Of a stretch of 64,000 nucleotides of DNA, positions 1 through 48,789 are shown piece by piece. The translations under genes were made by a program, and so were the position numbers. Numbering within the stretch: position 1 is the stretch's first letter; each line of letters opens with the position of its first letter. The DNA lies in NCBI GenBank assembly GCA_031370785.1, contig JANMQY010000058.1, forward strand, positions 78,612-142,611, read 5' to 3'. The notes beneath the pieces were generated by a model. The model did not search any database. It saw nothing but the letters and a program-made list of their open reading frames with translations, and was not told where the DNA came from. This stretch comes from Candidatus Eiseniibacteriota bacterium (lineage in GTDB: Bacteria > Eisenbacteria > RBG-16-71-46).

Positions 1-1353
1 GTCGATCGGCACACGCTTCGGTTCTACGAGCATTACTTCCCGGTCCAGTTCCCGGCCAACACCGTGGATATCGATCGCTACGGGTTCAGCACCGACGGTC
101 GGCAGAACGACGATTCCGGGCTCGACGGTCCGCGCCAGCCGCTCACCGCTTCGTACTACCTGCAGGACAAGTACGAGCGCGCGGGGCTGGTGGTGAATGC
201 CGGGGCGCGCTACGACTTCATCAACGTCGACGTTCAGGCGCTGAAGAGCGAGGACCTGCCGCTGGGCGGCGACGGCCAGCTGCGCAGCGACGATCTGGTC
301 CAGAACAAGAAGTACAGCCGCATCAGCCCGCGACTCGGCATCGGCTTCCCGGTCACGGACCGGACGGTGATGCACGTCAACTTCGGGCAGTTCTTCCAGC
401 AGCCGAACCTGCAGGACCTCTACGTCTCGTATCGGTTCCTCGAGCACAAGGTGCAGTCCGGCGGCTACTTCGTCGGCTTCGGCAATCCGAACCTGAAGCC
501 CGAGCAGACCACGGCGTACGAGGTCGGCATCGCACACCAGCTGAGTGACTACGCCAAGTTCGACATCACCACCTATTACAAGGACGTGAAGGACCTGGTC
601 GAGATCTCGAACATTGCGTCGTTCCCGAACAGCTTCGCGAGCTACCGGAACAAGGACTTCGCGACCATCAAGGGGATCGACCTCGGCTTCACGCTGCGTC
701 GGGTCAATCACATCCAGACTAATATCGCGTACAGCCTTTCGTACGCGGTCGGCACCGGCTCGGTCTCGAACACCCAGCGCAACATCGCCTGGACGGCAAG
801 CGATCCGCCCAAGCAGACCGCGCCGCTCGACTTCGACCAGCGCCACAAGGTCTCGATCAATGTCGACTACGCGCTGGGCAAGGGCGAGGGACCGAACGTG
901 GTCGGGCATAGCTGGCTCGGCAATCTCGACGTCAACCTGCTCTACAACATCGGCAGCGGGACGCCGTACACGCCGACCAACGTCTACGACGAACCGACGC
1001 TGGCGGCAGTCGCATCGCAGCCGGTGGGTCCGCTCAACTCGCGCTACGGTCCCTGGACTCAGAGCCTGGATCTCAAGGCGACCAAGTCCTTCACGGTGGC
1101 GGGACTCGACATGGGCGCATACGTGTGGGTGCTCAACGCGTTCGACGTCAAGAACGCGGTACAGGTCTTCACCAGCACCGGCTCGCCCCGCACCACCAGC
1201 TGGCTGAATACGCCTGAAGGCCAGAACGCGAGCGCGAACCTGAACACCAAGTACGGAATCGATGCTTCGCAGGCGTACGCGATGGCGCTGCAGAGCCCGT
1301 CGCTGTACAGCAACCCGAGAATGGTCCGCTTCGGCGTCCGGATGGGCTTCTAG
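1..1353 (+). CDS. TonB-dependent outer-membrane receptor, C-terminal portion (5' end lies outside the window)
   Basis: The ORF is open from the window edge. It has beta-barrel motifs typical of TonB-dependent receptors (GNPNLKPEQTTAYEVG) and a terminal RFGVRMGF ending in Phe. Confidence 0.8.
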   Translation, partial: VDRHTLRFYEHYFPVQFPANTVDIDRYGFSTDGRQNDDSGLDGPRQPLTASYYLQDKYERAGLVVNAGARYDFINVDVQALKSEDLPLGGDGQLRSDDLVQNKKYSRISPRLGIGFPVTDRTVMHVNFGQFFQQPNLQDLYVSYRFLEHKVQSGGYFVGFGNPNLKPEQTTAYEVGIAHQLSDYAKFDITTYYKDVKDLVEISNIASFPNSFASYRNKDFATIKGIDLGFTLRRVNHIQTNIAYSLSYAVGTGSVSNTQRNIAWTASDPPKQTAPLDFDQRHKVSINVDYALGKGEGPNVVGHSWLGNLDVNLLYNIGSGTPYTPTNVYDEPTLAAVASQPVGPLNSRYGPWTQSLDLKATKSFTVAGLDMGAYVWVLNAFDVKNAVQVFTSTGSPRTTSWLNTPEGQNASANLNTKYGIDASQAYAMALQSPSLYSNPRMVRFGVRMGF

Positions 1354-1391
1354 ACATGGCTCGACCCAACGGTGAACCAGAGGGGATTCGC

Positions 1392-4388
1392 ATGAATACG
1401 ACTCGTGTCCTGATGTGGATCGTTCTGATCTCGAGCCTGGCCGGCGTCGCTGCGGCGGCGCCGATCCGGGGATCTTCGCGCCGGGCCAAGCCGGCGAGCT
1501 CCAAGGTCGTGGACAACAGCCAGCGGATCGACATCAACAACGTGTCGATGGTGGTCACCAACACCGGTTCGTTTGCCTACGACAAGTCGACCGGCAACTC
1601 GGGTCTCGAGTTCCCCAAGGGCACCGGGAAAACCGCGGTGTTCGCTGCCGGTCTCTGGGTCGGCGCGACGGTCGGCGGCCAGACCCGCGTGGCCGTCTCG
1701 GAGTATTCCGACGATTACGCACCGGGACAGGCCGTGGGCGGGCTTGCCGATGATTTCACCAAGCCCGAGTACAAGGTCTACAAACTGGATCGGGTCTACG
1801 ACGATCTGGCGGTTCGAGATGCCGCGCTTGCCGACTACAACGCCGGCGCGGTTCCGCATGGCGCGCCGCCGGTGACGGTTCAGGGCGACGGTTCGCTCGA
1901 CATCCTTGGCGACCAGATGCTGTGGGCGGTCTACAACGACCGCAATCTGACCCCCCCGCGGCACACCAATCGTGCCGGCGACAATGGTTTACCGGTAGAC
2001 CAGCGATGGCTCGGACTCGAGATCCAGCAGACCACGTTCGCGTTCAACCGGCAGGGCGCGCTCGGCAACACCGTGTTCATCCGGTACAAGATCATCAATC
2101 GCGGGCCGAATCAGCTCGACAACATGTACGTGTCGCAGTGGAGCGATCCCGACCTCGGCGGGGCGACCGACGACCTGGTCGGCTGCGATCCATCGCTCGG
2201 CCTCGGCTACATCTACAACGCCTCGAACGCCGACGAGCAGTACGGCGGACAGCCCCCCGCGGTCGGCTACGACTTCTTCAAGGGACCGACGGTGGGAGCG
2301 ACGACGCTCGGCATGACGTCGTTCAACAAGTACATCAACGGAACCGACCCCAACACCGCGACCAAGTCCTACAACTACATGAAGGGTCTGGATGCCAACG
2401 GCAACGTCGTCATCAATCCGGTGACCGGACTGCCGACGACCTATCAGGTGTCGGGAGACCCGGTGACCGGCTCGGGCTGGCTGGACTCCAATCCCGCCGA
2501 CCGGCGTCTCATGCTCTCGAGCGGTCCCTTCTCGATGGCGCCAGGCACCGCCCTGGGAGCCGTAGACAGCCAGGAGGTCGTTGCCGCGATCGTCGTCGGG
2601 CAGAGCAAGAATCGCCTCGCGAGCATCTCGCTCATGAAGTTCTACGACACGTTCGCCCAGGCGGCGTTCGACGTGGACTTCAACCTGCCGAGTCCGCCGC
2701 AGTCGCCCAACGTGGTCGCGACCCCGCGACACGCTTCGGTGTTCCTCTCGTGGGACACGGTCGCCGAGAACTATAGTGAAGACCCATACCAGTTCGAAGG
2801 TTACGTGGTGTATCAGGGCGCCTCGATCGCCGGTCCGTTCGTTCGCATCGCCACCTTCGACAAGGTGAATGGGATCACGAACGTCATCGACAACGATTTC
2901 AACGAGGATCAGGGTCTGATCCTTCCGATCGGCAAGGCGTTCGGATCGGACGTCGGGCTCCGGCACTCGATCGAGATCGATCAGGACTACGTCCGCGGCG
3001 GCCCGCTGTACGACGGGCAGAGGTACTACTACGCGGTCACCGCGTACGCGGTCGACGTGAACAGCTTCCCAAAGGTGCTGGAATCCGCGTTCGAGGTCAT
3101 CCCGGTGGTTCCGCAGACGCCGCCCGCCGGGACCAACCTCGCGACCGCGACCGTGAGCGCGATCGTTCAGGGCCAGATCGTCCCGAACCCGAATCCGACC
3201 ACCGATGCGGTGACGGTGACCACGCTTGACCCGGCGACCGTCATCGACGCGAGCTGGTACATCGGATTCAAGCCGGCCGGTCCCGCCAGCACGCAGATCG
3301 TGTGGTACCTCGTGCGCACGGTGGGCACTCAGGTGGATACGGTAATCAACAACTGGCCCAACTTTTCGGGGGACGAGAACTACCCGGTCGTCAACGGCAT
3401 CCAGGTGAAGATCGTGAGTTATCCGCCGGGCCATCTCGCCCGGGCCGCGTACGTCGACACCGCCGGAGGAAGTCCGGCGGCGCTCGCCGGATATGACGGC
3501 GCCGGTCTGCCGTTCTGGGATGGTGGCGCGGGCTATGCAGCCGACCTGTTCGGGTCGTCGATCGCCTCGGGCACGCCCGGACCCAACGTTCAGGTTCGCT
3601 TCACCGGTGGCCCCGCCGGGCAGAAGGCCTACCGTTATCTGCGTTGCAACTGCTCGCCGCGTACCTACCTGATCCAGGACTACGTGGACGTGCCGTTCAC
3701 GGTGTACGACACCGACACCGACACCCAGCTCAATGCCGCGTTCCTGGAAAACGGGCCGGGGACCATCGACGATGGAGTCTGGAACCCGGACGACAGTCCG
3801 AACGGACAGCGCGAGATCGTGTGGGTGATGTCGAGCACCTATACCGGTGTCGCGGATCCGAATTACTTCAACGATCCAGCGCTCAAGGACGTCCTCGGCG
3901 GCAACATCGATTTCTGGTACGCGATGTGGCCGTATCGGGTGTCCGCGACTGCAGTCATCGATGCCGGCGACAAGTTCCTGTTCACCACCAGCATTCCGTC
4001 GACGGAGAACGACTACTTCACGTTCACGACCACCGCGGCCAACAAGGGCGATGTGGCAGCGGCCAAGTCGGAGATGTCGCGCATCCAGGCCGTCCCCAAC
4101 CCGTACTTCAGCCACTCGACATACGAGACCAATCAGTTCCACCGCATTCTCAAGTTCACGCACCTGCCGGAACGCTGCACGCTCAGGATCTTCAACCTCG
4201 CCGGCGACAAGGTGCGCACGCTCGAGAAGAACGACGCCACTTCGCAGCTGACCTGGGATCTCGAGACGGATCAGGGGCTGCCCGTGGGCAGCGGCATCTA
4301 CATCTTCCACGTCGATGCGCCCGGCTTCGGGACTCACGTGGGCAAGGTTGCGGTCTTCATGGAAAAGGAGCGCCTGAACAACTTCTAG
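1392..4388 (+). CDS. Large secreted protein (about 998 aa) with a C-terminal FlgD-Ig-like / T9SS-type sorting domain
   Basis: The start is placed at the ATG at 1392, preceded by GGAG and followed by a signal peptide (MNTTRVLMWIVLISSLAGVAAAAP). The last ~90 aa match the FlgD-Ig/T9SS C-terminal domain pattern (NPYFSH..LRIFNLAGDKVRTL..TWDL..GLPVGSGIYIFHV). Confidence 0.75.
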   Translation: MNTTRVLMWIVLISSLAGVAAAAPIRGSSRRAKPASSKVVDNSQRIDINNVSMVVTNTGSFAYDKSTGNSGLEFPKGTGKTAVFAAGLWVGATVGGQTRVAVSEYSDDYAPGQAVGGLADDFTKPEYKVYKLDRVYDDLAVRDAALADYNAGAVPHGAPPVTVQGDGSLDILGDQMLWAVYNDRNLTPPRHTNRAGDNGLPVDQRWLGLEIQQTTFAFNRQGALGNTVFIRYKIINRGPNQLDNMYVSQWSDPDLGGATDDLVGCDPSLGLGYIYNASNADEQYGGQPPAVGYDFFKGPTVGATTLGMTSFNKYINGTDPNTATKSYNYMKGLDANGNVVINPVTGLPTTYQVSGDPVTGSGWLDSNPADRRLMLSSGPFSMAPGTALGAVDSQEVVAAIVVGQSKNRLASISLMKFYDTFAQAAFDVDFNLPSPPQSPNVVATPRHASVFLSWDTVAENYSEDPYQFEGYVVYQGASIAGPFVRIATFDKVNGITNVIDNDFNEDQGLILPIGKAFGSDVGLRHSIEIDQDYVRGGPLYDGQRYYYAVTAYAVDVNSFPKVLESAFEVIPVVPQTPPAGTNLATATVSAIVQGQIVPNPNPTTDAVTVTTLDPATVIDASWYIGFKPAGPASTQIVWYLVRTVGTQVDTVINNWPNFSGDENYPVVNGIQVKIVSYPPGHLARAAYVDTAGGSPAALAGYDGAGLPFWDGGAGYAADLFGSSIASGTPGPNVQVRFTGGPAGQKAYRYLRCNCSPRTYLIQDYVDVPFTVYDTDTDTQLNAAFLENGPGTIDDGVWNPDDSPNGQREIVWVMSSTYTGVADPNYFNDPALKDVLGGNIDFWYAMWPYRVSATAVIDAGDKFLFTTSIPSTENDYFTFTTTAANKGDVAAAKSEMSRIQAVPNPYFSHSTYETNQFHRILKFTHLPERCTLRIFNLAGDKVRTLEKNDATSQLTWDLETDQGLPVGSGIYIFHVDAPGFGTHVGKVAVFMEKERLNNF

Positions 4389-4445
4389 TTGCCGGCGAAA
4401 ACCGACATGAACGATCCACTTTGCAACCGAGAGGAGCGCACAGCC

Positions 4446-5465
4446 ATGAAGGCCTATCGATGGATGGGGATGGCAGTCGCCGTCCTGATGATCACTGCCG
4501 GGGCGGCGTGGGCCGGGTCGTCACGACTCGGCACCGCGGGCGCACCCGAAATGAGACTCCCGGTCGGCGCCCGCAGCACGGCGCTTGCCGGGGCGAACGT
4601 CGGGGATGTTTCGGGGGTGGAGGCGCTGTACTTCAACCCCGCCGGGCTCGCCGCGACCGACAACGCGACCGAGATCATGTTCAGCCACACCGACTACCTG
4701 GCCGGGATGGGGCTCAACTACTTCGGCCTCGGACGCTCGATGGGCGGCCTCGGCATGATCGGAGTCAGCGTCAAGGTGCTGAGCGTCGGAGAGATCATGC
4801 GCACCAGCGAGGTCGCGCCGGACGGGACGGGCGAGACGTTTACGCCCACCTTCAGCACGCTCGGCCTGACCTATGCGAAGCGCATGACCGACCGGGTGAA
4901 TTTCGGCGGCACGGCGTACTACGTCTCCGAGCGCATCCTGCAGGAGACGGCGGCCGGAGCGGCGTTCGACTTCGGCTTCCAGTACGACACCGGCTACCAC
5001 GGCATGAAGCTCGGGATGGCGATGAAGAACTTCGGGTCCGCGCTCGGGTTCACGGGCAGCGATTTCGAGCTGAACCAGCGCCTCAACACCGATGACCCGC
5101 AGTCCGGCAACAAGACGCTGGCGCTGAGCTCGGCCAGCTTCGAGTTGCCTTCGACCTTCCAGCTCGCGCTGTCGCTGCCACTGATCCAGGGCATCAACGC
5201 TTTCTCGCTCCACGGGCTCTACCAGAACAACAGCTTCGACGTCGACGAGGGTCGGGTGGGCGCGGAGTTCGTGGCGCGCAAGGCGCTGGCGCTGCGTGCC
5301 GGCTACAAGATCACCTCGAACAAGGATGATCTGTTCGGGCTGAGCTACGGCGCCGGAGTGCGCGTGCCGCTTGGCGCGAATCACATGTGGGTGGAGTACG
5401 CAGGCCAGCAGGTCAGCGATTTCTTCGACAACGTTCAGCACATTTCGGTCAGCATGAGCTTCTGA
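4446..5465 (+). CDS. FadL/PorV-superfamily outer-membrane beta-barrel (PorV/PorQ-like)
   Basis: A GAGG RBS precedes the ATG at 4446, which is followed by a signal peptide. The N-terminal motif GARSTALAGANVGDVSGVEALYFNPAGLA is shared by the FadL and PorV families. The protein ends in Phe (SVSMSF). Confidence 0.7.
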   Translation: MKAYRWMGMAVAVLMITAGAAWAGSSRLGTAGAPEMRLPVGARSTALAGANVGDVSGVEALYFNPAGLAATDNATEIMFSHTDYLAGMGLNYFGLGRSMGGLGMIGVSVKVLSVGEIMRTSEVAPDGTGETFTPTFSTLGLTYAKRMTDRVNFGGTAYYVSERILQETAAGAAFDFGFQYDTGYHGMKLGMAMKNFGSALGFTGSDFELNQRLNTDDPQSGNKTLALSSASFELPSTFQLALSLPLIQGINAFSLHGLYQNNSFDVDEGRVGAEFVARKALALRAGYKITSNKDDLFGLSYGAGVRVPLGANHMWVEYAGQQVSDFFDNVQHISVSMSF

Positions 5466-7027: not shown

Positions 7028-7813
7028 CTAGCGGAACCAGACCTTGAGGTGACCCCACATCATCTCGGGAGGGAGCGGGTCTCCAGGAAATGGCGCGGCC
7101 TGGCTGGTTCGATTGAGCCGCGCGGCCCGACTCGTTCCCGGTGCGGGACGCATCGCGTTCTGAGGGTTGCCGCTTTCGGGCGTGGTCTCGTCTTCCCAGC
7201 GCTCGATCCACCAGCGATTGGCGTCGGGCTTGAAGCCGCGGTCGACCAGCTCCTGAGGGATGGCCGCGGAATCGCCACGCACCAGGTAAAACAGGCCAGG
7301 TCCCTTGATCTCGGTGCTGCTCTCGCCGACGTTGATGCGCAGAAGCACCTGCGCGCGAATCTGCTTGTGCCATCCCGGGTCCTTGCCCGGGCGCGCATCG
7401 GGCACCGCGACCAGATCCGAGGTGTAGTCGAACGTGATGCTGGTCGCCGGTGGATCGGAGGCAGTGCCAGTGACGAACAGCTTTTCCGCGCTGAGCAGCT
7501 CGTCCTCGCGCCGCCACGGCTTGACGGTGGGATCGTAGGTGCTTCCGGACGAGTCGCGGACCGAGAACTTGAACAGGTAGTCGTCGGTGAAGATCTCGCG
7601 ATACTCGGTGATCGCGCGATTTCTCCAGCACCACTGGAACAGGCGCAGCACGCCGGCCGCACTGGTCGGTGCCGGAGGTGGAGTCGGAGGCGCGCCGCCG
7701 GCGGCGAGACGCGGCGAGAAGGGATTGAAGCAGCCGGTGGCCCCGAACGCGCCCAGCACCAGCGCCGCAAACACCACCACCTGCACTCCGAGAAGTCTCG
7801 AGCGAGCGCTCAT
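7028..7813 (-). CDS. Probable lipoprotein, paralog B (unknown family)
   Basis: A signal peptide is followed by Cys (LVLGAFGATGC). The start ATG overlaps the upstream stop as ATGA. It shares the C-terminal motif NRWWIERWEDETTPESGNPQN with the adjacent paralog. Confidence 0.7.
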   Translation of the reverse strand: MSARSRLLGVQVVVFAALVLGAFGATGCFNPFSPRLAAGGAPPTPPPAPTSAAGVLRLFQWCWRNRAITEYREIFTDDYLFKFSVRDSSGSTYDPTVKPWRREDELLSAEKLFVTGTASDPPATSITFDYTSDLVAVPDARPGKDPGWHKQIRAQVLLRINVGESSTEIKGPGLFYLVRGDSAAIPQELVDRGFKPDANRWWIERWEDETTPESGNPQNAMRPAPGTSRAARLNRTSQAAPFPGDPLPPEMMWGHLKVWFR

Positions 7814-8457
7814 CGAAAATCCATTCTGCGGGCCGAGAAGCTCTGGTCTTCCTGATTCTGCGGGGACACGCCGACTGCAGGGTCCACGTGATCGGTCCAG
7901 CGCGTCAGGAACCACCGCGTACCGACGTAAACGAAATCAAGATCCGCATATCCGACCGCGATGCGCTCGGCGTCGCCTTCCTGCGGCAGAGCATACACCT
8001 GATAGCGCCGGTGGAGGATGACGTGAGTAGTCTCGATGAAGTCGTTCTGGGTCGGGTCCGGTGACCACTGCATGTCGAAAGGCTGGCTGCGCACGTCCTG
8101 AACGAATCGGCTATAGAAGCGGCGCTCCTCGTCCACTCCCCAGACCGAGGGAGCCGGCTCGTTGCGAGCGTTGGGCACGGCCGGATCGAACGTGGCCGCG
8201 AACGCCGTTCCTCCACTGGTTGGAGTAGAAAGGGCCCCGATGTAGGCATCCAGTCCATTGCCCTGCGCCTTTGCTTCGAGCCCACGCGCCATTGTCTCGA
8301 GCGCCGAATCCGGGTCGGTGTAGTTGACGACGACGAACACTCCGCCGCTGCCCTGTTCCGGCACCGCCGGGCGAAACAGGTTGCAACCTCCGAACGCGCC
8401 GGTGCTGGCGCACCAGACGAGCGTGAGGAGCAGAACCAGCGTCAGTCGATTTCTCAT
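7810..8457 (-). CDS. Probable lipoprotein, paralog A (unknown family)
   Basis: The ATG at 8457 overlaps the stop of the upstream barrel gene as ATGA. A signal peptide and Cys follow (LVWCASTGAFGGC). The C-terminal motif TRWFLTRWTDHVDPAVGVSPQN is shared with paralog B. Confidence 0.7.
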   Translation of the reverse strand: MRNRLTLVLLLTLVWCASTGAFGGCNLFRPAVPEQGSGGVFVVVNYTDPDSALETMARGLEAKAQGNGLDAYIGALSTPTSGGTAFAATFDPAVPNARNEPAPSVWGVDEERRFYSRFVQDVRSQPFDMQWSPDPTQNDFIETTHVILHRRYQVYALPQEGDAERIAVGYADLDFVYVGTRWFLTRWTDHVDPAVGVSPQNQEDQSFSARRMDFR

Positions 8458-10592
8458 TGGAGTGCCCACGAGAGCTGCAGGGTGCCGTTCCAGTAGTCGG
8501 TCTCCGAGCGGGGAGTGGGCTGCGGCACGCCTGTGGTGTAAGTGATACTCCGGTCGGCGCGATAGGTTCGGCGAATATCGCCGGTGAGGCGCCCGCGCGC
8601 GCCGAGCGGCAGATTGACGCTCGCGCCGCCCGAGAAGTTCAGGGTCCTGCCCTTGCGTTGCGGGGCGCTCTCCCCGTTCTGAAAATTGTTGCGATTGGAC
8701 GCCTGGTAGTTGGGTTCCAGCACCAACGAGAGCTGCGGCGTCGGGGTGTACGAGATTCGCGAGGACAGCGTGTAGTTCTGGCTCTGGTCCGACTCGCCGA
8801 ACGCCTCGAGTCCGTCGAACTGGCGCACGAACGTGCCGCTCGGCTGGACCAGGGAGTTGTGGACCACATCGAGCGTGAGCCGGGGCGAGAGCACCGCATT
8901 GAGCGCGGTGTTGGTGCCATAGCTGAGCGAGAGCCGGTTGTTCTGGGGGAGGAAGGTGTAGAGGAGGTAGTCCGCGCTGATGCTGTTGCGCTGGTTGACG
9001 GTCAGCCCGCGCAGCAGGCGATAGCTCCATCGCCACTCAGAGCGATAGGTGCGGTCCTCGTTGTTGGCCGCGGTGCTCGAGCTCGGCAGGTTGATGAACA
9101 GCGTGCGCGTGACCTCGAGCACCACCGCGCTGTTGAACTTCTCGGACTGGGTGTAGAGCCCTTCCATCCGGTAGCTCTGGATGTACTGGTCATGGTCGAT
9201 CGGCGGCGTCCGGAAGTGTCCGAGCAGGAAGTACCGGAAAGAAGAGAGCGAGACCCGCCCGGTGGCCTTGGCCACGATCCGGGTCCCGATGTTGCGGCCG
9301 AGCGTGGCGCTGACCGAGCGCACGTAGAGCGACTCGCCGTAGCCCCCAGTGGTGTCGCGCAGCGGGAATTCCGAGCGCGAGCGCGTCAGCGTGAAGTCGT
9401 GGTCGATCGCCCATCCGGCGAGCGCATAGCGGGCAACGTAGCCGGCGCTCTGATCGTGGCGCCGGGTCTCGGCTCCGAACAGCTGACCGCTCAGCTGGCG
9501 GGTGCGCCCGTCACGCGCCTGCAGGTTGACGTACCGATCCGAATCCCTGCGGATCCGTGCGGTCGCATCGACGCCGTTGTTCTGGGTCCGGATCTGCTGG
9601 ATGCGCGTGCTGTCCTGCGGCGTTTCGACCAGCAGGTCCTTCAGGTTGAAATTGACCACGAGACCGGCTTGGGACCAGGGCTGCAACGTGAGCGTGCCGC
9701 GAGCGACCCGGGTGAGATCGTGCGTGTTCAGCTGGAACTGGGTGTTCGGCACCCGCGTGCGCGAGAGATTTCCGGCGAGCTGCCCGGTGAAATCCTGCGA
9801 CAGCCAGTCGCCCCGCGCGAAACGGACCCGACCGTTGAGGTCGCCGGAGATTCCGCGCTTCACCTGCAGCGGATTTGTCTGATCGATTACTCCGCTGAGC
9901 AGGTTCACATCGGAGCTGATGCCGTGGCCGGGCGACTGCCGGCTGCGCGCCGTGAGCTGCAGGTCGTTGTTCGAGCTGCTGAAATTGTTGCCCGGATCCG
10001 CGTTGTTGTAGCGCTCGAGATTGAGGCGCCCACCCAGCGAGAAGTCCTTCGAGAGCTTGTAGCCGCTCTCGGTGGTGGAGACGCGAGACTGCTGCAGGCT
10101 GAGCCGTCCCACGGATCGATATCGGTTCAGGCCGATGTTGGTCGTGTTGCGCAGGAACAACCCGCCCCGGATCACGTTGTAGTCCGACCCGTTGGTCCAG
10201 CCGCTCGAGGTCTGCTGGACGTTGTAGCTGCTGGTGTAGTTGAAGCTGGTGACCCGGGTGCCGGTCGCGGCCAGGGGGTTGTAGCGCTCGCGCTCGAGCA
10301 TGGCCCCCACGCTGTCCACCGGGATGGCGAGGCTGTCGGCCACCAGCACCAGCCGGTCGAGCGAGTAGCGGTACCGGATCGAGAGCGCACGCAGCGTGTC
10401 CGGGAGCATCCCCAGGCTGTCGGCCAGCGGAAACAGCCGGTTGAAGTGCAGTCCCAGCGTGTCCCGCAGCAGCGTCGTATCCGCGAACGCGAACCGCGAA
10501 GACGAGGTCTGGGCGCGGCCCGGGCCGGTCAAGGCGGCCAGCGCGAGTAGAAGTGGCAGCAGGAGGAGTGTGGCGCGTCGCAGCAGGGTCAT
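8454..10592 (-). CDS. Outer-membrane beta-barrel-like protein (712 aa, unknown family)
   Basis: It has a signal peptide (MTLLRRATLLLLPLLLALAALTGPGRAQ) and an apparently helical N-terminal ~100 aa. The remainder is rich in S/T/N/Q/R/Y/G with alternating polarity and has no hydrophobic helices. Confidence 0.7.
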   Translation of the reverse strand: MTLLRRATLLLLPLLLALAALTGPGRAQTSSSRFAFADTTLLRDTLGLHFNRLFPLADSLGMLPDTLRALSIRYRYSLDRLVLVADSLAIPVDSVGAMLERERYNPLAATGTRVTSFNYTSSYNVQQTSSGWTNGSDYNVIRGGLFLRNTTNIGLNRYRSVGRLSLQQSRVSTTESGYKLSKDFSLGGRLNLERYNNADPGNNFSSSNNDLQLTARSRQSPGHGISSDVNLLSGVIDQTNPLQVKRGISGDLNGRVRFARGDWLSQDFTGQLAGNLSRTRVPNTQFQLNTHDLTRVARGTLTLQPWSQAGLVVNFNLKDLLVETPQDSTRIQQIRTQNNGVDATARIRRDSDRYVNLQARDGRTRQLSGQLFGAETRRHDQSAGYVARYALAGWAIDHDFTLTRSRSEFPLRDTTGGYGESLYVRSVSATLGRNIGTRIVAKATGRVSLSSFRYFLLGHFRTPPIDHDQYIQSYRMEGLYTQSEKFNSAVVLEVTRTLFINLPSSSTAANNEDRTYRSEWRWSYRLLRGLTVNQRNSISADYLLYTFLPQNNRLSLSYGTNTALNAVLSPRLTLDVVHNSLVQPSGTFVRQFDGLEAFGESDQSQNYTLSSRISYTPTPQLSLVLEPNYQASNRNNFQNGESAPQRKGRTLNFSGGASVNLPLGARGRLTGDIRRTYRADRSITYTTGVPQPTPRSETDYWNGTLQLSWALQ

Positions 10593-10755
10593 TCGGGCAC
10601 GCGGTGGGGCGTGATCACGCGGGAAAGGCTAGCATCGGGCACGAAGCCGGGTCAACGACACGAGGTACGCGCGGGCGCACGCCTCGCCACGAGCGGCGGG
10701 TGGGGTGCGTAGCGGCGCGCAGATTGATACCCCGCCAGGTGTCCTCGAGAGCCAC

Positions 10756-10789
10756 GAAAAAGCGCCGGCGCCCATGAAGGGCGCCGGCG
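10756..10789 (-). terminator. Intrinsic-terminator-like hairpin oriented on the minus strand
   Basis: There is a perfect 11-bp stem (CGCCGGCGCCC / GGGCGCCGGCG) with loop ATGAA. On the minus strand the stem is followed by TTTTTCG; the plus strand has an A-run before the stem. Confidence 0.4.
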
Positions 10790-11056
10790 GGCGAGTGCGG
10801 CGACATGTCCTGACGTCGCGAAATCGTTGCCGAATCCGACGCCGCTCGAGCCTCACCACCTCGGCGGCCGGCGTCGTGGTTCCTCCTGCACGTCCTGCCC
10901 GTGGGGATTAGTCGCTTGCAGCGCTCAAGTTTGAGGTGCTAGCGTGCCGAAGCTTGGCGGGCAAGGACGCCCGATCGCCCTCCTCGCAAGACTCCTTTCC
11001 CGATATCAGAACCCTGCGTCACCCGCGTCCGCACTAAACCTACTGGAGAGGCACGG

Positions 11057-12094
11057 ATGTTCCTCGACAGCCTGATGGGTTTCTTTTCGACCGACGTTGC
11101 CATGGACCTCGGCACCGCCAATACCCTGGTCTTCGTCAAGGGCCGCGGCATCGTCCTGAACGAACCGTCCGTGGTGGCCGTGGACAAGGCGACCGGGAAG
11201 GTCCGGGCGGTGGGGAGCGAGGCCAAGCTCATGCTCGGCCGCACCCCGGATGAGATCAGCGCGGTACGCCCCCTCAAGGACGGCGTGATCGCCGATTTCG
11301 AGCTGACCGAGGACCTGATGCGGGAGTTCGTGCACCGGGTCCAGAAGCACAAGTTCCTGGTGCGGCCCCGGATCATCATCTGCGTGCCGTCGGGGATCAC
11401 CGAGGTCGAGAAGCGCGCGGTCATCGACTCGGCAGTCCGTGCCGGCGCCCGCGAGGTGCTGCTGGTGCCCGAACCCATCGCCGCGGCGATCGGGGTGGGA
11501 CTCCCGGTCGACACCCCGACCGGCAACATGGTCGTCGACATCGGGGGCGGCACCACCGAGATCGCGGTCATCGCCTTGAACGGCATCGTGACCAAGACCT
11601 CGATCCGCACCGGCGGCGACGAGATGGACGAAGCGATCATGACCTACGCCAAGAAGGCGTACAACATGCTCATCGGCGAACAGACCGCCGAGCGCATCAA
11701 GATCGAGATCGGCTCGGCCTTCCCGTTGCCTGAAGAGATGGACATGGAGATCAAGGGCCGCGATCTGGTGCGCGGCATCCCGCGCACACTGCGCGTCTCC
11801 AGCGTCGAGATCCGTGAGGCGCTGCAGGAACCGGTCGGACAGATCGTGAACGCATTGCGCGAGTGCCTGGAACGCACACCGCCCGAACTGGCCGCGGACA
11901 TCGTGGACCGGGGCATCTTCATGACGGGGGGCGGTGCGCTGCTGCGCGGCCTCGATCTGCTTCTGCGCGAAGTCACCAACCTCAACATCCGTGTCGCCCA
12001 GGACCCGCTCACCTGCGTAGTGCTCGGGGCCGGCAAGATCCTCGAGCAGATCGAGGACTTCGAAAAGGTGATCCTGAGCGGCCACAAGGACTGA
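11057..12094 (+). CDS. mreB: Rod shape-determining actin homolog MreB
   Basis: MreB motifs are present (DLGTANTLVFV, DIGGGTTEIAV). A GGAGAGG RBS precedes the start. Confidence 0.95.
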   Translation: MFLDSLMGFFSTDVAMDLGTANTLVFVKGRGIVLNEPSVVAVDKATGKVRAVGSEAKLMLGRTPDEISAVRPLKDGVIADFELTEDLMREFVHRVQKHKFLVRPRIIICVPSGITEVEKRAVIDSAVRAGAREVLLVPEPIAAAIGVGLPVDTPTGNMVVDIGGGTTEIAVIALNGIVTKTSIRTGGDEMDEAIMTYAKKAYNMLIGEQTAERIKIEIGSAFPLPEEMDMEIKGRDLVRGIPRTLRVSSVEIREALQEPVGQIVNALRECLERTPPELAADIVDRGIFMTGGGALLRGLDLLLREVTNLNIRVAQDPLTCVVLGAGKILEQIEDFEKVILSGHKD

Positions 12095-12097
12095 CGT

Positions 12098-12907
12098 ATG
12101 GGTGGCTTTCTGCCCCCCGCCCAGCGCCGCAGTAGCGCCCTTCTGGGACTCTACGCGGCGCTTTCGCTTCTGATGCTGATGACCGGAGACCGCCTGCCGC
12201 AGCCGCTGCTCCGCTCGGTCGGGGCGTTCCTGTTCGCGCCGTTCGATCGCGCGGTACAGACCGTGGACCGCGCAGCATCGGCGTGGCGCGACAACCAGCA
12301 GCTGCACCAGCGCATCGCGGAGCTCGAGATCGAGAACTCGCGACTGCGCGACGCCGGGGTCGAGAATGCGCGCCTTCGCGATCAGCTCCACCTCTCGACC
12401 TATCGCGGCTACCCGGTGAAGCCGGTCGAGGTTCTGGCGCTCTCGGGAGAAGCGGTTCCGGCCGCGGCGACCCTGAGCGCCGGATCGAAACAGGGCGTGC
12501 GCGAAGGAGACGGCGTGGTGACCAGCGACGGCCTGCTCGGGCGGATCGGCGAGAGCTACCCGGGGTACAGTCGGGTGGTGCTGCTCACCGATCTCAACTC
12601 GGCGGTTTCGTGCGCGGTCGAGAGCACCGGCGTGCTCGGCGTGTTGCGCTTCACCATCGCGCCCCATCCCCGGCTGGTGCTGACCGGCGTGCCGCTCACC
12701 GACACGGTGCGGATCGGGCAGCGCGTCATCACTTCGGGGCTCTCGCGCCGCTACCCGCGCGGGCTTCCGGTCGGCTCGGTGATCCGGCTCGGCCGCGACC
12801 CGAGCGGTCTGGTTCAGGACATCGAGGTCGAGCCGGCCGCGCGCCTTTCGCGCCTCCGGCACGCGTTCGTGCTGCCGCGCCCGGCCACCGCGGAGCTGCG
12901 CCCATGA
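12098..12907 (+). CDS. mreC: Rod shape-determining protein MreC
   Basis: It has a coiled-coil N-terminus and the MreC beta domain, and lies directly downstream of mreB. Confidence 0.9.
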   Translation: MGGFLPPAQRRSSALLGLYAALSLLMLMTGDRLPQPLLRSVGAFLFAPFDRAVQTVDRAASAWRDNQQLHQRIAELEIENSRLRDAGVENARLRDQLHLSTYRGYPVKPVEVLALSGEAVPAAATLSAGSKQGVREGDGVVTSDGLLGRIGESYPGYSRVVLLTDLNSAVSCAVESTGVLGVLRFTIAPHPRLVLTGVPLTDTVRIGQRVITSGLSRRYPRGLPVGSVIRLGRDPSGLVQDIEVEPAARLSRLRHAFVLPRPATAELRP

Positions 12908-13416
12908 AGAACGTCCTGGTGCTGATCACCGTGGCGATGATCGCGCTGCTGCTGCGCTCGACCGCGCTCACCGCGCTGACCGCGCGCGGACTGGTGCTCG
13001 ACGTGCTCGCCTTTGCGACCGTGGTCTGGGCGCTGCGCTCCGGGGAAACCTGGGGCAGCGGTTTCGGTTTCCTGGTGGGGCTGGCTGCGGACCTCGATGC
13101 TGCGCACTGGCTGGGCCGGCATGCGCTGATCCTGACGCTCACCGGCTACGCGGTAGGAAGGCTCGGCCGGACGCTGGTCCGTGACAGCGCACGCACCCAG
13201 TTCGTGCTGCTGCTCCTCGCGACGCTCGTGCACCAGGGCTGGGCGGTCGCGTTCGAGTTCGGAGGCATCCAGGGCTGGCCCTACCTGCTCATGCGCGTCG
13301 TGGTCGCCGCGGTCGCCAGCGCGACGCTCGGCACGCTGCTCCTCTCGCTGGCGCGCCTCGTCAGCGGTCAACCCCTGTTCGGACATGCTGTCCTCGAATC
13401 AAGTTCGTCGAGCTAG
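12904..13416 (+). CDS. mreD: Rod shape-determining protein MreD
   Basis: The ATG at 12904 overlaps the mreC stop as ATGA. The 170-aa polytopic membrane protein lies between mreC and mrdA. Confidence 0.8.
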   Translation: MKNVLVLITVAMIALLLRSTALTALTARGLVLDVLAFATVVWALRSGETWGSGFGFLVGLAADLDAAHWLGRHALILTLTGYAVGRLGRTLVRDSARTQFVLLLLATLVHQGWAVAFEFGGIQGWPYLLMRVVVAAVASATLGTLLLSLARLVSGQPLFGHAVLESSSSS

Positions 13417-15241
13417 GGAAGCGCGTTACGCGCTGCTCACCGGGATGGTCATGCTCGGATTCGGGCTCGTGGTCGCGGGACTGCTTCGCCTCCAGGTGTT
13501 CCAGCACGATCAGTACGTGGAGCTCTCCAAGGAGAACCGGGTCCGGCTCGAGGTGCTGCGCGCTCCGCGCGGCGCGATCTACGATCGAAGGGGAGAGCTG
13601 CTCGCGGACAGCGCGCCGAGCTTCAACGTCGTGTTCCGTCCTTTCCCGAGCGAGAGCGTCGCGTCGGCGCGCCTCACCGAGAGCCCGGGCTGGATCGCGC
13701 GGGTCGCCGAGATGGTCGAGCTCGACAGCGCCGAAGTGCGGGCCCGGGTGAAGGTGGCCAACGGCAGCGGTCAGAACGCATCGCTGCGCCGCAATGCGCC
13801 GCCGCCGGTGGTCGCGGCGGTGGAGGAGTGGCGCGCCGAGCTGCCCGGAATCGAAGTGCAGATCGAGCCGCTCCGCCACTACCCGAACGGGACCTTCGCG
13901 TCGCACCTGCTGGGCTACGCCGGCGAGATCAACACCGCCGAGCTGGATTCCTTGCAGCTTCAGGGCTATCGACCCGGGGACCTGATCGGGCGCACCGGAA
14001 TCGAGCGGCGCTACGAAGAGTCCTTGCGCGGGCGCGACGGCGCCGAGTACGTCGTGGTCAACGCGATGGGCAAGCGGGTGACGACGCTGAGCGAGGGCCC
14101 TCCGCTCAGGCCGGAAGCCGGTCACAACCTGCGCCTCACGCTCGACCTCAAGGTGCAGCGCGCGCTGGAAGAGGCGATGGCCGGCGTGGAGCGGGGCGGC
14201 GCGGTCGCGATCGACCCACGCGACGGCGGCGTTCTCGGCATGGTGAGCCGCCCGGCGTTCGATCCGAACGAGTTCTCGGCCGGTCTTTCGGTGGCGCGCT
14301 GGAAGCAGCTCTCGGGCGGCGATCTGAATCCGCTGCTCAACCGCGCGCTGCAGGGCGTCTATCCGCCGGGTTCGACGTTCAAGATCGTCTCGATGCTGGC
14401 CGCGCTGCGCTACGGAGTCGCCAGCGCCCGCACCACCCTGGCCCCGTGCACCGGCCACTGGATCTTCGGCGACCGCTCGTTCGGATGCTGGAAGGCAGCC
14501 GGGCACGGCGTGCTCGACTTCATCGGCGCCCTGCAGCATTCGTGCGACGTGTATTTCTATCAGATCGGGCCGCGCATCGGACTCCCGCATCTGGTGGAGA
14601 CCGCGCGCGCCCTCGGCCTCGGCGAGCGCACCGGCGTGGATCTGCCGCAGGAGAGCCGCGGGCTGATTCCGGACGACGCGTGGTACAACCGGCGCTGGGG
14701 CGAGGGAAGGTGGCGCAAGGGTATGATGCTGAACCTGGCGATCGGGCAGGGCGAGCTGCTGGTCACGCCGCTCCAGCTCGCGCTGATGGCCGCGCAGGTC
14801 GCCGAGAGCGGCCGCCCGATGCGCCCGCACGTGGTCGAGGACGTGGTCGGCGCGCCCGAGTTCAAGGTGGATCGGCCGGTCGAGCCCGGCCTGATCGCGG
14901 AACCGGCGGTGTGGAGCGCGGTCCAGCAGGCGATGGAGCGGGTGGTGGACTCGGGCACCGGCACCGCGGCCAGGGTCCAGGGGGTACGGGTCGGCGGCAA
15001 GACCGGCACCTCTCAGAACCCGCACGGAAAGGATCACGCCCTGTTCGTCTGCTACGCGCCGGTCAACGATCCGCAGATCGCGATCGCGGTGGTGATCGAG
15101 AACATCGGACACGGCGGCACGTTCGCGGCGCCGCCGGCGGCCGCGGTGATCCGCCGCCTGTTCCTGCCCGACTCGCTTCAGCCGAAACACGTGGTCGTCC
15201 TGCCGCTCCCGGACACCTCGGCGGTGCGCGATGCCGACTAG
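13385..15241 (+). CDS. mrdA: Penicillin-binding protein 2 (peptidoglycan D,D-transpeptidase)
   Basis: An N-terminal TM is followed by the PBP dimerisation domain and a transpeptidase with STFK and KTGT motifs. The start at 13385 gives a PBP2-like cytoplasmic tail; 13445 is an alternative. Confidence 0.9.
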   Translation: MLSSNQVRRAREARYALLTGMVMLGFGLVVAGLLRLQVFQHDQYVELSKENRVRLEVLRAPRGAIYDRRGELLADSAPSFNVVFRPFPSESVASARLTESPGWIARVAEMVELDSAEVRARVKVANGSGQNASLRRNAPPPVVAAVEEWRAELPGIEVQIEPLRHYPNGTFASHLLGYAGEINTAELDSLQLQGYRPGDLIGRTGIERRYEESLRGRDGAEYVVVNAMGKRVTTLSEGPPLRPEAGHNLRLTLDLKVQRALEEAMAGVERGGAVAIDPRDGGVLGMVSRPAFDPNEFSAGLSVARWKQLSGGDLNPLLNRALQGVYPPGSTFKIVSMLAALRYGVASARTTLAPCTGHWIFGDRSFGCWKAAGHGVLDFIGALQHSCDVYFYQIGPRIGLPHLVETARALGLGERTGVDLPQESRGLIPDDAWYNRRWGEGRWRKGMMLNLAIGQGELLVTPLQLALMAAQVAESGRPMRPHVVEDVVGAPEFKVDRPVEPGLIAEPAVWSAVQQAMERVVDSGTGTAARVQGVRVGGKTGTSQNPHGKDHALFVCYAPVNDPQIAIAVVIENIGHGGTFAAPPAAAVIRRLFLPDSLQPKHVVVLPLPDTSAVRDAD

Positions 15242-16457
15242 GTTCCGGCTGCGCCTGCCCGCCGTCGACGTTCCGCTCGCGCTTGCCGCGATCGCGCTGG
15301 TGACGTTCGGGCTGCTGGTGGTGTACAGCGCCACCTCGGTCCCGGGCGCGCACGAGGGGCTGTGGACCAAGCAGCTGATGTGGGCGCTGATCGCGCTGGC
15401 CGCCGCATGCGTGGCCGCGGCGATCCATCATCGCGCCTACGATTCGCTGGCCTATCCGTTCTACGGCATCTCACTGTTGATGCTGATCGCGGTGCTGGTG
15501 GCGGGATCGAGCGCGATGGGCGCCAGGCGCTGGCTCGACCTGGGTCCGATCCGATTCCAGCCCTCCGAGCTGGCGAAGCTGGCGACCGTGCTCATGCTGG
15601 CGCGCAGATTCGACAATCCCAAGCTCGACCTGACCCGGATGCGCTACTGGCTGCCGGCGCTGCTGCTCACCCTGGTGCCGTTCGCGCTGGTCGCGCGCGA
15701 GCCCGATCTGGGCACCGCGCTCTCGTTCCCGGTGATCCTCGTCACCATGTACTACTGGGCGGGGATGCCGCTGGGACGCCTGCTGCTCGGGCTGTCGCCG
15801 GTGTTCAACGCAGTGCTGTTCTTCGCGACCGGTTCGCTGTGGTGGTTCGCCGGCCTGCTCGCGGTGCTGCTCGCCGGGGTCCGTCCCCGCGTCACCGCGC
15901 TCGTGACCGTGCTCCTGCTCAATGGCGTGGTGGCGTACGCGCTGCCGCACGTTTGGAATCACATGCACGACTATCAGAAGCGGAGAATCGAGACCTTCAT
16001 GAATCCCGGCGCCGATCCCTACGGGGCGGGCTATCAGATCATCCAGTCGCAGATCGCGATCGGCTCGGGCGGCGCCGCGGGGAAGGGCTACCTCAAGGGC
16101 TCGCAGAAGGCGCTCTCGTTCCTGCCCATGCGTCACACCGACTTCATCTACTCGGTGGTCGGGGAGGAGCTGGGCTTCATTGGCGCGTTGACGGTGGTGT
16201 TACTGTACGCGGTCATCATCGTGCGCGGCATCCGGCTGGCGGCGGTGGTCCGCAATGGATTCGCGAGCCTGCTTGCGGTAGGGCTGGTTTCCGCGCTCTT
16301 CTTTCAGATCATGGTCAACATGCTCATGACCATCGGCTGGGCGCCGGTCACCGGTCTGCCCCTGCCGCTTCTGTCCTATGGCGGGACCGCGCTGCTCGTG
16401 AACGGCATTCAGATCGGCCTGCTCCAGAACGTGGCGCTGCGCCGCAAGGAGCTCTGA
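15231..16457 (+). CDS. rodA: Peptidoglycan glycosyltransferase RodA (SEDS family)
   Basis: This is a SEDS-family polytopic membrane protein. It overlaps the mrdA 3' end. Confidence 0.92.
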   Translation: MPTRFRLRLPAVDVPLALAAIALVTFGLLVVYSATSVPGAHEGLWTKQLMWALIALAAACVAAAIHHRAYDSLAYPFYGISLLMLIAVLVAGSSAMGARRWLDLGPIRFQPSELAKLATVLMLARRFDNPKLDLTRMRYWLPALLLTLVPFALVAREPDLGTALSFPVILVTMYYWAGMPLGRLLLGLSPVFNAVLFFATGSLWWFAGLLAVLLAGVRPRVTALVTVLLLNGVVAYALPHVWNHMHDYQKRRIETFMNPGADPYGAGYQIIQSQIAIGSGGAAGKGYLKGSQKALSFLPMRHTDFIYSVVGEELGFIGALTVVLLYAVIIVRGIRLAAVVRNGFASLLAVGLVSALFFQIMVNMLMTIGWAPVTGLPLPLLSYGGTALLVNGIQIGLLQNVALRRKEL

Positions 16458-16462
16458 CCCAG

Positions 16463-30249: not shown

Positions 30250-30269
30250 GCTCGGGAGAGGAGCGGGGC

Positions 30270-31184: not shown

Positions 31185-31187
31185 AGC

Positions 31188-34156: not shown

Positions 34157-34157
34157 C

Positions 34158-34811: not shown

Positions 34812-34830
34812 GCCGCGTGAGGAGCGAGGG

Positions 34831-34938
34831 TTGAGCGGAAACCTGGTGGTGCTGGGAGTCGCCCTGCTGGTGTGGGGCCTGCTGTTCCTGTATCTCATCC
34901 GTCTGGAGCGCCGCATCCAGGACTTGGAGAAGTCATGA
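34831..34938 (+). CDS. ccmD: Heme exporter protein CcmD (35 aa, single TM)
   Basis: A small TM ORF (LSGNLVVLGVALLVWGLLFLYLIRLERRIQDLEKS) lies between ccmC and ccmE. Its stop overlaps the ccmE ATG as ATGA. The start codon is uncertain (TTG or GTG). Confidence 0.55.
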   Translation: MSGNLVVLGVALLVWGLLFLYLIRLERRIQDLEKS

Positions 34939-45717: not shown

Positions 45718-45746
45718 TGACAGTCCGAGATGAAGGGGCTTCAATC
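45718..45746 (+). promoter_or_regulatory. Candidate sigma70-like promoter for the coxS operon
   Basis: TTGACA is followed by 17 bp and then TTCAAT, about 35 bp upstream of the coxS start in a divergent intergenic region. Confidence 0.3.
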
Positions 45747-45781
45747 GCGGCGGTCGTTCCATTCTTCAATGCACGTGAAAC

Positions 45782-48783: not shown

Positions 48784-48789
48784 GGCGCC

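Follow-up and report, generated by a model that had tools for sequence, protein, structure and literature searches.

What kind of envelope system is encoded by a three-gene operon (A-B-C) of Candidatus Eisenbacteria (Eiseniibacteriota) whose products are annotated as hypothetical proteins only? The operon lies in the window, the 64,000-nucleotide stretch of DNA analyzed here. The initial annotation was mistaken in looking to Gemmatimonadota as the source lineage, and its judgment that A, B, and C belong to no named family stands after sequence searches of Pfam, NCBIfam, and the PDB. None of the three proteins has a Pfam match at E ≤ 1. NCBIfam returns nothing for A and B and a single sub-threshold match for C, to MRP, which is taken as chance (18.5 bits, cutoff 1470). 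PDB sequence profiles yield nothing meaningful for A, B, or C, with significance set at E ≤ 0.001; the best of their matches, that of B to RBBP4 (22.6 bits, E 5.7e-4), is rejected, no single stretch of it passing alone. Since none of the proteins matches a named family, A-B-C is probably an undescribed envelope complex. The reading favored here, at a probability of roughly 40%, is that the three proteins together form a single housekeeping complex of the outer membrane, a barrel with plugs on the working principle of LptDE.

Operon organization and translational coupling

The three minus-strand genes encode a predicted 712-aa secreted outer-membrane protein (A, 8454-10592), a 215-aa acidic lipoprotein that is a distant paralog of C (B, 7810-8457), and a 261-aa lipoprotein whose NTF2/SnoaL-like core is accompanied by flexible linkers and a tail conserved at the C-terminus (C, 7028-7813). 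The ATGA joins reported in the initial annotation are borne out by the sequence: on the minus strand, the A/B stop/start overlap falls at 8454-8457, with the B ATG at 8457, and the B/C overlap at 7810-7813, with the C ATG at 7813. An in-frame GTG at 8469 provides an alternative B start that fits the (M/V)GT... starts of most relatives. Translational coupling of A-B-C is conserved, as the A/B overlap is 13 nt at most orthologous junctions and a 4-nt overlap is the commonest arrangement at the B/C junction across loci. Overlaps here and in relatives support the proposed co-translated operon of a barrel and two paralogous lipoproteins.

A promoter-like element, TTGACC-N18-TAGCCT (10626-10655, minus strand), precedes the start codon of A by about 35 nt and is kept in loci L076 and L003, but it is considered tentative because a consensus promoter scanner made no call at this site. 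Upstream of it, an 11-bp GC hairpin with a T-run (10763-10789, minus strand) lies on the A strand. The hairpin is conserved, with the stem kept and the loop differing in L003. It has no Rfam match, and may serve as a leader or small-transcript terminator.

A wide predicted barrel with a conserved N-terminal domain

An AlphaFold2 model of A (mean pLDDT 85.7, pTM 0.67) confirms the helical N-terminus and the barrel of about 600 aa that had been proposed from the sequence. The model comprises a signal-peptide helix (residues 3-21), short helices (39-102), and 28 long strands (114-710). Cleavage of the signal peptide (aa 1-27; 10512-10592, minus strand) is predicted after PGRA, ahead of invariant Gln28; P24, G25, A27, and Q28 vary little or not at all in 60 homologs. 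The predicted periplasmic helical domain that follows (aa 28-110; 10263-10511, minus strand) is modeled with pLDDT 56-76 and contains repeated (A)D(S/T)(L/V) motifs, with DS-type repeats present in distant relatives too. It is the best-conserved part of A, with a mean majority fraction of 0.78 versus 0.63 for the barrel.

The predicted 28-stranded beta-barrel (aa 114-710; 8463-10253, minus strand) has strand connections of 2-9 residues and no in-chain plug domain in the model. Its backbone radius, estimated geometrically at about 25 Å, exceeds that of 26-strand LptD or MtrB. A crude parity analysis finds lumen-facing positions no better conserved than lipid-facing ones. Mature A has a pI of about 10 and a net charge of +23, and basicity holds in 60/60 homologs (pI 8.5-10.6). 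At least 373 homologs of A exist, every one without a name.

Paralogous lipoproteins with conserved terminal motifs

The lipoprotein signatures first noted in B and C are upheld. Each protein has a signal peptide and a lipobox (AFGG before C25 in B, GATG before C28 in C) whose Cys varies in neither family alignment, marking B and C as predicted SPase II substrates. A lipobox is found in all but two of 60 detected C orthologs and in 17 of 18 downstream genes examined from five distant operons; among B orthologs, it is found in 44/61, the misses probably reflecting start-codon assignment and the regex search.

A post-Cys motif, C-x-N-P/L-F-x-P, is common to both families. The form in B is C-N-L-F-R-P-A-V-P-E (8356-8385, minus strand), in which C25, F28, and P33 never vary and P30 hardly does; many orthologs have C-x-N-P-F-x-P-A-x-P instead. 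The form in C is C-F-N-P-F-x-P (7712-7732, minus strand), with C28 invariant, F29, N30, P31, F32, and P34 nearly invariant, and consensus residues present in 46-50 of 58 loci. Beyond a variable linker, C carries the tail motif W-G-H-L-K-V-W-F-R (7031-7057, minus strand), for which the family alignment gives the pattern [ST][WF]Gx[LMV][KR]xx[YFW], i.e., WGxLKxx(Y/F). This motif recurs in the C-type lipoproteins of distant operons and, within about 1 Mb of related loci, is confined to the C-type genes of these operons. The presence of conserved peptides at both ends of flexible linkers suggests docking.

The description of B and C as clear paralogs holds in part. Profile-profile comparison indicates that the paralogy is real (probability 96%, E 4e-9, 178 columns), but "clear" is too strong because BLASTP aligns the C-terminal 41 aa alone (E 5e-5) and profile identity is 17%. 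C is modeled as an NTF2-like cone, an alpha+beta arrangement of three helices on a curved antiparallel sheet characteristic of the NTF2-like superfamily, and B, as a distant paralog, is inferred to share the fold. By sequence, only weak SnoaL_2 matches emerge, in 5 of 55 members. Mature B is acidic (pI 4.65), as are 43/43 orthologs (pI 4.4-5.5).

Conservation and genomic context

A-B-C is divergent from a cell-shape operon, as initially described; Pfam matches, with tblastn for MreD and Lgt, resolve it as mreB-mreC-mreD-PBP2-rodA-lgt (11057-17242, plus strand). Every Eisenbacteria locus that includes upstream sequence has MreB divergent to A, at A identities as low as 38%, and so do two deeper relatives. 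The rest of the operon is seen in L001, L002, L074, and L076. A gdh gene and a PorV-like gene are likewise syntenic, so gene order is generally conserved.

A scan of 71 genome loci finds the A-B-C order at all Eisenbacteria loci whose downstream sequence is long enough, and three full-length locus look-ups agree. All Eisenbacteria genomes with a match in the scan carry A, generally as a single copy. Nine distant relatives match the A profile at E-values of 1e-27 to 1e-46, with about 20% identity where they were aligned, and in all nine a barrel gene is followed by 2-5 lipoprotein genes. Most of these lipoproteins score against the B or C profile and a few show a lipobox alone, in a scan that covered loci other than L080-L082. 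B-type copies are single wherever typing is possible. C-type copy number ranges from one here to as many as four in relatives, beside a constant barrel and single B-type gene. The barrel-lipoprotein linkage is thereby kept in all related loci that reach far enough and in distant relatives, and neither outcome that the initial annotation had named as counting against it, a known-family match or an unconserved linkage, was observed.

In another deep clade, A lies behind metG-tatD-rsmA and has no mreB linkage. In five loci rsmA lies immediately upstream of A, as it probably does in a sixth, whose upstream gene is unannotated; A overlaps rsmA, and one locus also has surA and pdxA upstream. E. coli carries surA, pdxA, lptD, and rsmA in one operon (PMC10495129). 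The contexts of A-B-C are all housekeeping, either beside mreBCD-pbp2-rodA-lgt or co-transcribed with metG-tatD-rsmA. Synteny with mreB or rsmA may represent conserved housekeeping gene order and nothing more.

A proposed barrel-and-plug complex and its rivals

From gene order, coupling, predicted folds, conservation, charge pattern, and motifs, all drawn from sequence and structure prediction, the favored reading infers physical association, plugging, orientation, and a transported substrate. A would be a very wide 28-strand barrel, plugless in itself and with nothing but tight turns at either face, and as such could not sit open in the membrane. Acidic, NTF2-like B, the one constant partner, would close the A lumen or its periplasmic mouth, probably with help from the conserved N-terminal helical domain of A. 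The charges of basic A (60/60) and acidic B (43/43) are complementary and conserved, which we count as a sign of assembly. C-type lipoproteins would dock through their conserved ends, C-x-N-P-F-x-P beside the anchoring lipid and WGxLKxx(Y/F) at the tail. Plugging by all the lipoproteins is argued against by their number, which reaches five for a barrel that keeps its size; five cannot fit the lumen together, so at least the C-type copies would lie outside it or be cargo. Most likely, what the complex would pass or insert into the outer membrane is an amphipathic envelope component (lipid, glycolipid, LPS, or lipoprotein), with the NTF2-like cones as putative hydrophobic-ligand holders. In MlaC, the same fold class provides a phospholipid-binding pocket and carries phospholipid through the periplasm (PMC12153054). 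A bolder and rather doubtful form of this proposal makes A-B-C a previously unrecognised machine of the Eisenbacteria lineage, in which a 28-strand barrel closed and served by NTF2-like lipoproteins stands in place of a canonical envelope-biogenesis translocon. Its role might be LPS or glycolipid insertion without the Lpt jellyroll bridge, or lipoprotein flipping to the surface, and A would then be the widest single-chain barrel apart from SprA.

The translocation or anchoring module for lipoproteins suggested in the initial annotation is one putative rival. A dedicated Slam/T11SS-like exporter, in which A moves its own C-type lipoproteins to the cell surface, is unlikely. The post-Cys motif and WGxLK tail would be export signals and the displayed NTF2-like proteins the end product, consistent with the variation in C-type copies (1 to 4) beside a constant barrel and single B-type, with disordered linkers that separate the conserved terminal peptides from the fold, and with the restriction of the tail motif to these genes across about 1 Mb of related DNA. 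Yet A has no Slam similarity, TPR region, or 14-strand DUF560 barrel, its 28-strand pore far exceeds the need of unfolded or small cargo, and the operon context is housekeeping and single-copy. Known Slam cargo has a C-terminal beta-barrel domain, whereas B and C are NTF2-like. It is improbable that A and B/C are instead extremely diverged true orthologs of LptD and LptE, with A as the LPS insertase of the phylum. The OstA/LptD_N jellyroll and the PF04453 and PF04390 signals are absent, the A profile picks up no LptD chain in the PDB even at E ≤ 10, the model has 28 strands rather than 26, and the partners are NTF2-like rather than LptE-like. In favor of orthology are membership of A in the largest barrel class after SprA, its lipoprotein partners, its presence, generally once, in all Eisenbacteria genomes with a scan match, and a neighborhood (rsmA overlap, with surA and pdxA in one locus) that mirrors lptD-surA-pdxA-rsmA of E. 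coli (PMC10495129).

NTF2-like cones bind small ligands, which would suit a channel for uptake, large, gated, TonB-independent, and analogous to SusCD, RagAB, or BtuBG, in which the lipoproteins would act as substrate-binding lids. There is little to recommend this reading given that A has no plug domain and no match to a TonB-dependent receptor or plug family, that catabolic or regulatory genes are not linked to it, and that it occurs as one copy per genome in housekeeping contexts. Slimmer still are the chances of an envelope tether or coordinator, in which the complex would tie the growth of the outer membrane to wall synthesis directed by MreB while the N-terminal helical domain of A makes contact with peptidoglycan or the elongasome. 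Such a role accords with the divergent mreBCD-pbp2-rodA-lgt operon in all Eisenbacteria loci with upstream sequence and in two deeper relatives, and with the N-terminal domain as the most conserved region of A, but the other deep clade has rsmA in place of mreB upstream (five loci, probably six), the synteny of gdh and the PorV-like gene reflects gene order conserved in general, and Pfam finds no known peptidoglycan-binding domain.

To our knowledge, almost everything known of the machines of outer-membrane biogenesis comes from Proteobacteria and a few Bacteroidota, and we know of no NTF2-like lipoprotein that partners a barrel. The novelty of A-B-C lies in a predicted barrel wider than LptD, combined with NTF2-like lipoproteins, in every genome hit of an uncultured phylum. 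If it is truly an LptDE-like or lipoprotein-export device, it would represent a second, non-homologous way of moving amphipathic molecules to the outer leaflet. It would also offer a handle on surface-lipoprotein export in the FCB superphylum, for which we know of no described mechanism. Even a merely plugged structural complex would comprise three new protein families and two putative short docking motifs.

Comparison with known systems

The LptDE/Slam/SusCD analogy drawn in the initial annotation is reasonable as a working principle but fails as a claim of membership, with no jellyroll, TPR, plug, or TonB box. Pfam and NCBIfam give no LptD, LptE, DUF560, or SusD family match for A, B, or C. 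Assignment of A to the TonB-dependent transporters or SusC is rejected, as PF07715 and PF00593 are not matched and the model is plugless with 28 strands, not 22; the same Pfam scan does detect these families in a genuine TonB-dependent receptor fragment of the window. SusC-SusD, RagAB, and BtuB-BtuG also differ in their lipoproteins, B and C being neither SusD-like nor beta-propeller, and single-copy, housekeeping A-B-C does not lie in a polysaccharide-utilisation locus of the SusC-SusD kind. A is likewise not MtrB/PioB (no MtrB_PioB Pfam match; CxxCH heme motifs absent from B and C), and A-B-C differs from MtrCAB in having no linked cytochrome genes. Omp85/BamA-TamA identity fails on the lack of a POTRA or Omp85-family Pfam match and on 28 strands versus 16.

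Slam resembles A-B-C in placing a barrel gene beside lipoprotein genes that it may serve and that vary in number. The lipoprotein fold is not alike, and Slam joins an N-terminal TPR region to a 14-strand barrel, whereas A has a short helical domain and 28 predicted strands. With neither TPR repeats nor a DUF560 barrel, A is not Slam/T11SS; two chance-level TPR_Slam signals (E 0.24) fall in C-family members and none in A. MlaC shares its alpha+beta cone with C and, given the profile paralogy, probably with B. It differs from B and C in sequence, with no detectable similarity, and in that B and C are lipid-anchored with family-specific terminal motifs.

The N-terminal OstA/LptD_N beta-jellyroll of LptD receives LPS from LptA. 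A has no such jellyroll, just short helices (39-102) ahead of the modeled barrel, and shows no sequence or specific fold similarity to LptD: PF04453 is found in 0/60 members at E ≤ 1, the PDB search yields no LptD chain at E ≤ 10, and A does not resolve as a 26-stranded barrel specifically similar to solved LptD. Neither the 64-kb window nor the related loci that were retrieved show a canonical LptD. B and C are not LptE by sequence family (PF04390) or fold; the partners of A are NTF2-like and 2-5 in number, versus a single LptE, and the A barrel is strongly basic, unlike LptD. The likeness to LptD-LptE resides in the very large size of a monomeric barrel (26 strands for LptD, 28 predicted for A), a cognate lipoprotein presumed to fill the lumen, and an essential, housekeeping character that is putative for A-B-C. 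It extends to the neighborhood, for A of the distant clade adjoins rsmA and, at one locus, has surA and pdxA nearby too, like lptD in E. coli (PMC10495129).

Genomic context of A, B and C

From their sequences, genes A, B and C are classed as encoding a putative barrel-lipoprotein outer-membrane complex drawn from three undescribed families. A (8454..10592, 712 aa), B (7810..8457, 215 aa) and C (7028..7813, 261 aa) are minus-strand open reading frames. Read on that strand, an ATGA at 8457-8454 makes the stop codon of A overlap the start codon of B, and another at 7813-7810 does so for B and C; the three-gene layout of the initial annotation is found just as described. An alternative in-frame GTG start for B at 8469 (minus strand) matches the (M/V)GT... 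start of most orthologs, in which the A/B overlap is 13 nt. Third-position GC is high in all three frames, as for real genes of this 65% GC genome.

The cell-shape operon said to lie divergent to these genes is indeed there, with mreB, mreC, mreD, PBP2, rodA and lgt identified as plus-strand neighbours. The lgt gene (prolipoprotein diacylglyceryl transferase, 16517-17242, plus strand) directly follows rodA in this mreBCD-pbp2-rodA operon, and thus the first enzyme of lipoprotein maturation is encoded in an operon divergent to two lipoprotein genes. The same position of lgt is seen in the related loci L002, L074 and L076; in L001 a short LGT fragment occurs nearby.

The other flank holds gdh, a PorV/PorQ-family outer-membrane protein (4389-5465, plus strand; NF033709 at 139.8 bits, cutoff 90) and a secreted protein of 1010 aa that carries a T9SS-type C-terminal domain ('...AVPNPYF...'; 1356-4388, plus strand), with a partial TonB-dependent receptor (64-1353, plus strand) just before it. 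The PorV-like and 1010-aa proteins suggest that this phylum has a T9SS-like pair of cargo and shuttle. Many Eisenbacteria loci also have the PorV-like gene and gdh downstream of A-B-C, and the full trio is present in L076. A cytochrome c maturation cluster with CcmB-like, CcmC-like and CcmF-like genes (33269-37600, plus strand), the pyridoxal-phosphate synthase pair SOR/SNZ and SNO (29973-31841) and a xanthine-dehydrogenase-type molybdoenzyme cluster (45730-50759) are ordinary housekeeping content without a link to A-B-C.

The mreB/A intergenic region (10593-11056) contains a promoter-like element of A, TTGACC-N18-TAGCCT (10655-10626, minus strand). Upstream of it on the A strand lies an 11-bp all-GC hairpin followed by CTTTTTCG (10763-10789, minus strand), whose stem is kept, with a differing loop, in L076 and L003. 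No gene lies upstream of the hairpin on its strand, and Rfam does not match it; it could belong to a leader or attenuator, or mark where a small transcript ends. Across the window, scans for Rfam families and tRNAs were negative.

Conservation and family searches

The proposal that none of the three proteins belongs to a named family is borne out by HMM searches of Pfam and NCBIfam, which gave no meaningful match. At E <= 1, Pfam has no match to A, B or C and NCBIfam none to A or B; the sole NCBIfam match, of C to MRP (18.5 bits, cutoff 1470), is at chance level and was rejected. Pfam searches over whole family alignments return only weak generic barrel matches for A and weak SnoaL_2 matches for C. 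The three family profiles find nothing meaningful among PDB sequences, the matches to RBBP4, a lectin and a tautomerase being chance-level. Public records of A, B and C are labelled 'hypothetical' or uncharacterised and assigned to Candidatus Eisenbacteria or Eiseniibacteriota. Literature searches returned no relevant paper on 28-stranded outer-membrane barrels, NTF2-like lipoproteins paired with barrels, Eisenbacteria LptD, the Eisenbacteria outer membrane, or LptE with NTF2.

Homologs of A number at least 373 by word index and 320 at E <= 1e-3 when the profile was searched exhaustively against 1.84 billion cluster representatives. A scan that took one genome from each GTDB species found 71 loci, mostly labelled Candidatus Eisenbacteria and otherwise generically, as in 'uncultured bacterium'; three bear other taxon names, taken to be binning errors. 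Because the scan used two motifs of A's N-terminal domain, it sampled the main clade alone. Here B and C homologs directly follow A in every locus with enough sequence, mreB is divergent to A in every locus with upstream sequence, and gdh and the PorV-like gene are often downstream too. In the Eisenbacteria loci examined there is in general one A-B-C locus per genome, and the carriers are uncultured organisms.

In distant full-length relatives the match to the A profile is confined to the barrel (E 1e-46 to 1e-27). They retain DS-type repeats at the N-terminus and have no Pfam domain; those aligned are about 20% identical to each other. The mreB-divergent context persists in L074, with two lipoprotein genes, and in L079, with four. 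In a deep clade (L075, L077, L078, L080, L081 and L082), PSP1-metG-tatD-rsmA lies upstream of the barrel and two to five lipoprotein genes lie downstream. L080 and L081 carry a YibQ-like (polysaccharide) deacetylase and pdxJ after the lipoprotein genes, followed in L081 by secDF. Across five distant operons, 17 of the 18 downstream genes examined have a lipobox, the other being truncated by the edge of L078. Most are matched by the B or C profile, with exactly one B-type copy, placed first, and one to four C-type copies. The barrel and its lipoproteins stay together in both the mreB and the rsmA contexts; hence their linkage, which the initial annotation proposed to test in related genomes and which holds wherever sequence suffices, is invariant, and the linkage to mreB is not.

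Predicted structure of A

AlphaFold2, with a 60-sequence alignment, gives a model (mean pLDDT 85.7, pTM 0.67) in which a signal peptide is followed by five short helices within residues 39-102 (pLDDT 56-76) and then by 28 long strands spanning 114-710; the model agrees with the helical N-terminus and barrel anticipated from the sequence. The predicted strands average 17.6 residues, all connections are 2-9 residues, and the alternate turns, presumed periplasmic, are 2-4 residues. The model has no plug, jellyroll, POTRA or TPR domain. Geometric estimation from the predicted strands gives a backbone radius of about 25 A, compared with about 24 A if there were 26 strands and 20 A if there were 22.

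Conservation within A is highest in the N-terminal helical domain (majority fraction 0.78 versus 0.63 for the barrel). In a parity-based comparison, lumen-facing positions are no more conserved than lipid-facing ones, which says little because the strands reach far past the membrane. All 60 homologs of A are basic (pI 8.5-10.6; net charge +23 here), an uncommon trait among outer-membrane barrels. Cleavage of the signal peptide falls in PGRA|Q (residues 24-28; window 10509-10523, minus strand), a stretch that is invariant or nearly so, and mature A starts with Gln. Pyroglutamate N-termini, the 'Q-rule', are described for secreted proteins of Bacteroidota, and the Gln start presumably fits this rule.

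Lipoproteins B and C

As claimed, B and C each have a signal peptide and lipobox, with a Cys that is invariant in the family alignments. Their designation as clear paralogs stands as to paralogy (hhalign probability 96%, E 4e-9, 178 columns, 17% identity) but overstates its closeness: BLASTP reaches only the common C-terminal RW..RW.D block. Both are predicted to adopt an NTF2-like fold, C by modelling and B by profile. B is acidic in 43 of 43 homologs (pI 4.4-5.5), and the pI of C is variable.

Directly after the lipidated Cys, the C family has C-F-N-P-F-x-P and the B family C-x-(N)-(P/L)-F-x-P-A-x-P. This C-x-N-P-F-x-P (7712-7732 and 8356-8385, minus strand) recalls the 'PNP(F/Y)' that opens T9SS C-terminal domains, such as that ending the 1010-aa protein; the likeness may be chance, since just three or four residues are common to both. 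C-type proteins end in [ST][WF]Gx[LMV][KR]xx[YFW], preceded by a variable linker rich in Pro, Ala and Thr. Across about 1 Mb of related DNA this tail is confined to C-type genes, and the idea of a general WGxLK sorting signal was therefore rejected.

Proposed function and comparison with known systems

The three genes are tightly coupled, and A is a very wide predicted barrel that, in the model, has neither occluding loops nor plug. Judged from sequences and models, the lipoproteins carry conserved terminal peptides on flexible linkers, and the charges of A and B are complementary. No living cell could carry so wide a barrel unfilled, and co-occurrence with A in every locus examined limits the candidates for the filling to B, the C-type copies and the N-terminal domain of A itself. 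The lumen would have room for one NTF2 domain, perhaps two, and five could not fit; the most economical model would thus make B the constant plug and the C-type copies peripheral subunits, docked through their end motifs, or cargo. NTF2-like cones hold hydrophobic ligands, as in MlaC (PMC12153054), and this fold, together with the envelope and housekeeping contexts, favours the idea that A-B-C passes on a lipidic envelope component. The joint reading, that A, B and C may form one complex and may pass such a component to the outer membrane, is tentative, with a probability of roughly 0.4.

Several other readings would use the same parts. Were the C-type copies cargo, the barrel might be a Slam-like exporter of its own lipoproteins, which is unlikely. 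NTF2-like cones bind small ligands, as the lipoprotein lids of a TonB-independent uptake channel would; the model lacks a plug domain and the operon is seen in housekeeping contexts only, and such a channel is improbable. A tether linked to the elongasome would draw on the divergent mreB, a linkage absent from the loci with rsmA upstream, and is very improbable. That A-B-C is a new envelope-biogenesis or lipoprotein-export machine has about the same low probability as the Slam-like exporter. None of the tests run for membership in LptD, LptE, Slam, TonB-dependent transporters/SusC, MtrB or Omp85 was passed.

A likeness to LptD is found in gene order. In L077, L080 and L082 rsmA and the barrel gene share 4 nt, the stop of the former overlapping the start of the latter, and L078 adds surA and pdxA upstream of the barrel, which echoes the E. 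coli operon in which lptD lies with surA, pdxA and rsmA (PMC10495129). A diverged true LptDE would account for this order, and, as A-B-C passed none of the membership tests run for LptD and LptE, it has little probability. In working principle, the proposed complex, known from sequence and models, most resembles LptD-LptE or other pairs of a barrel and a lipoprotein.
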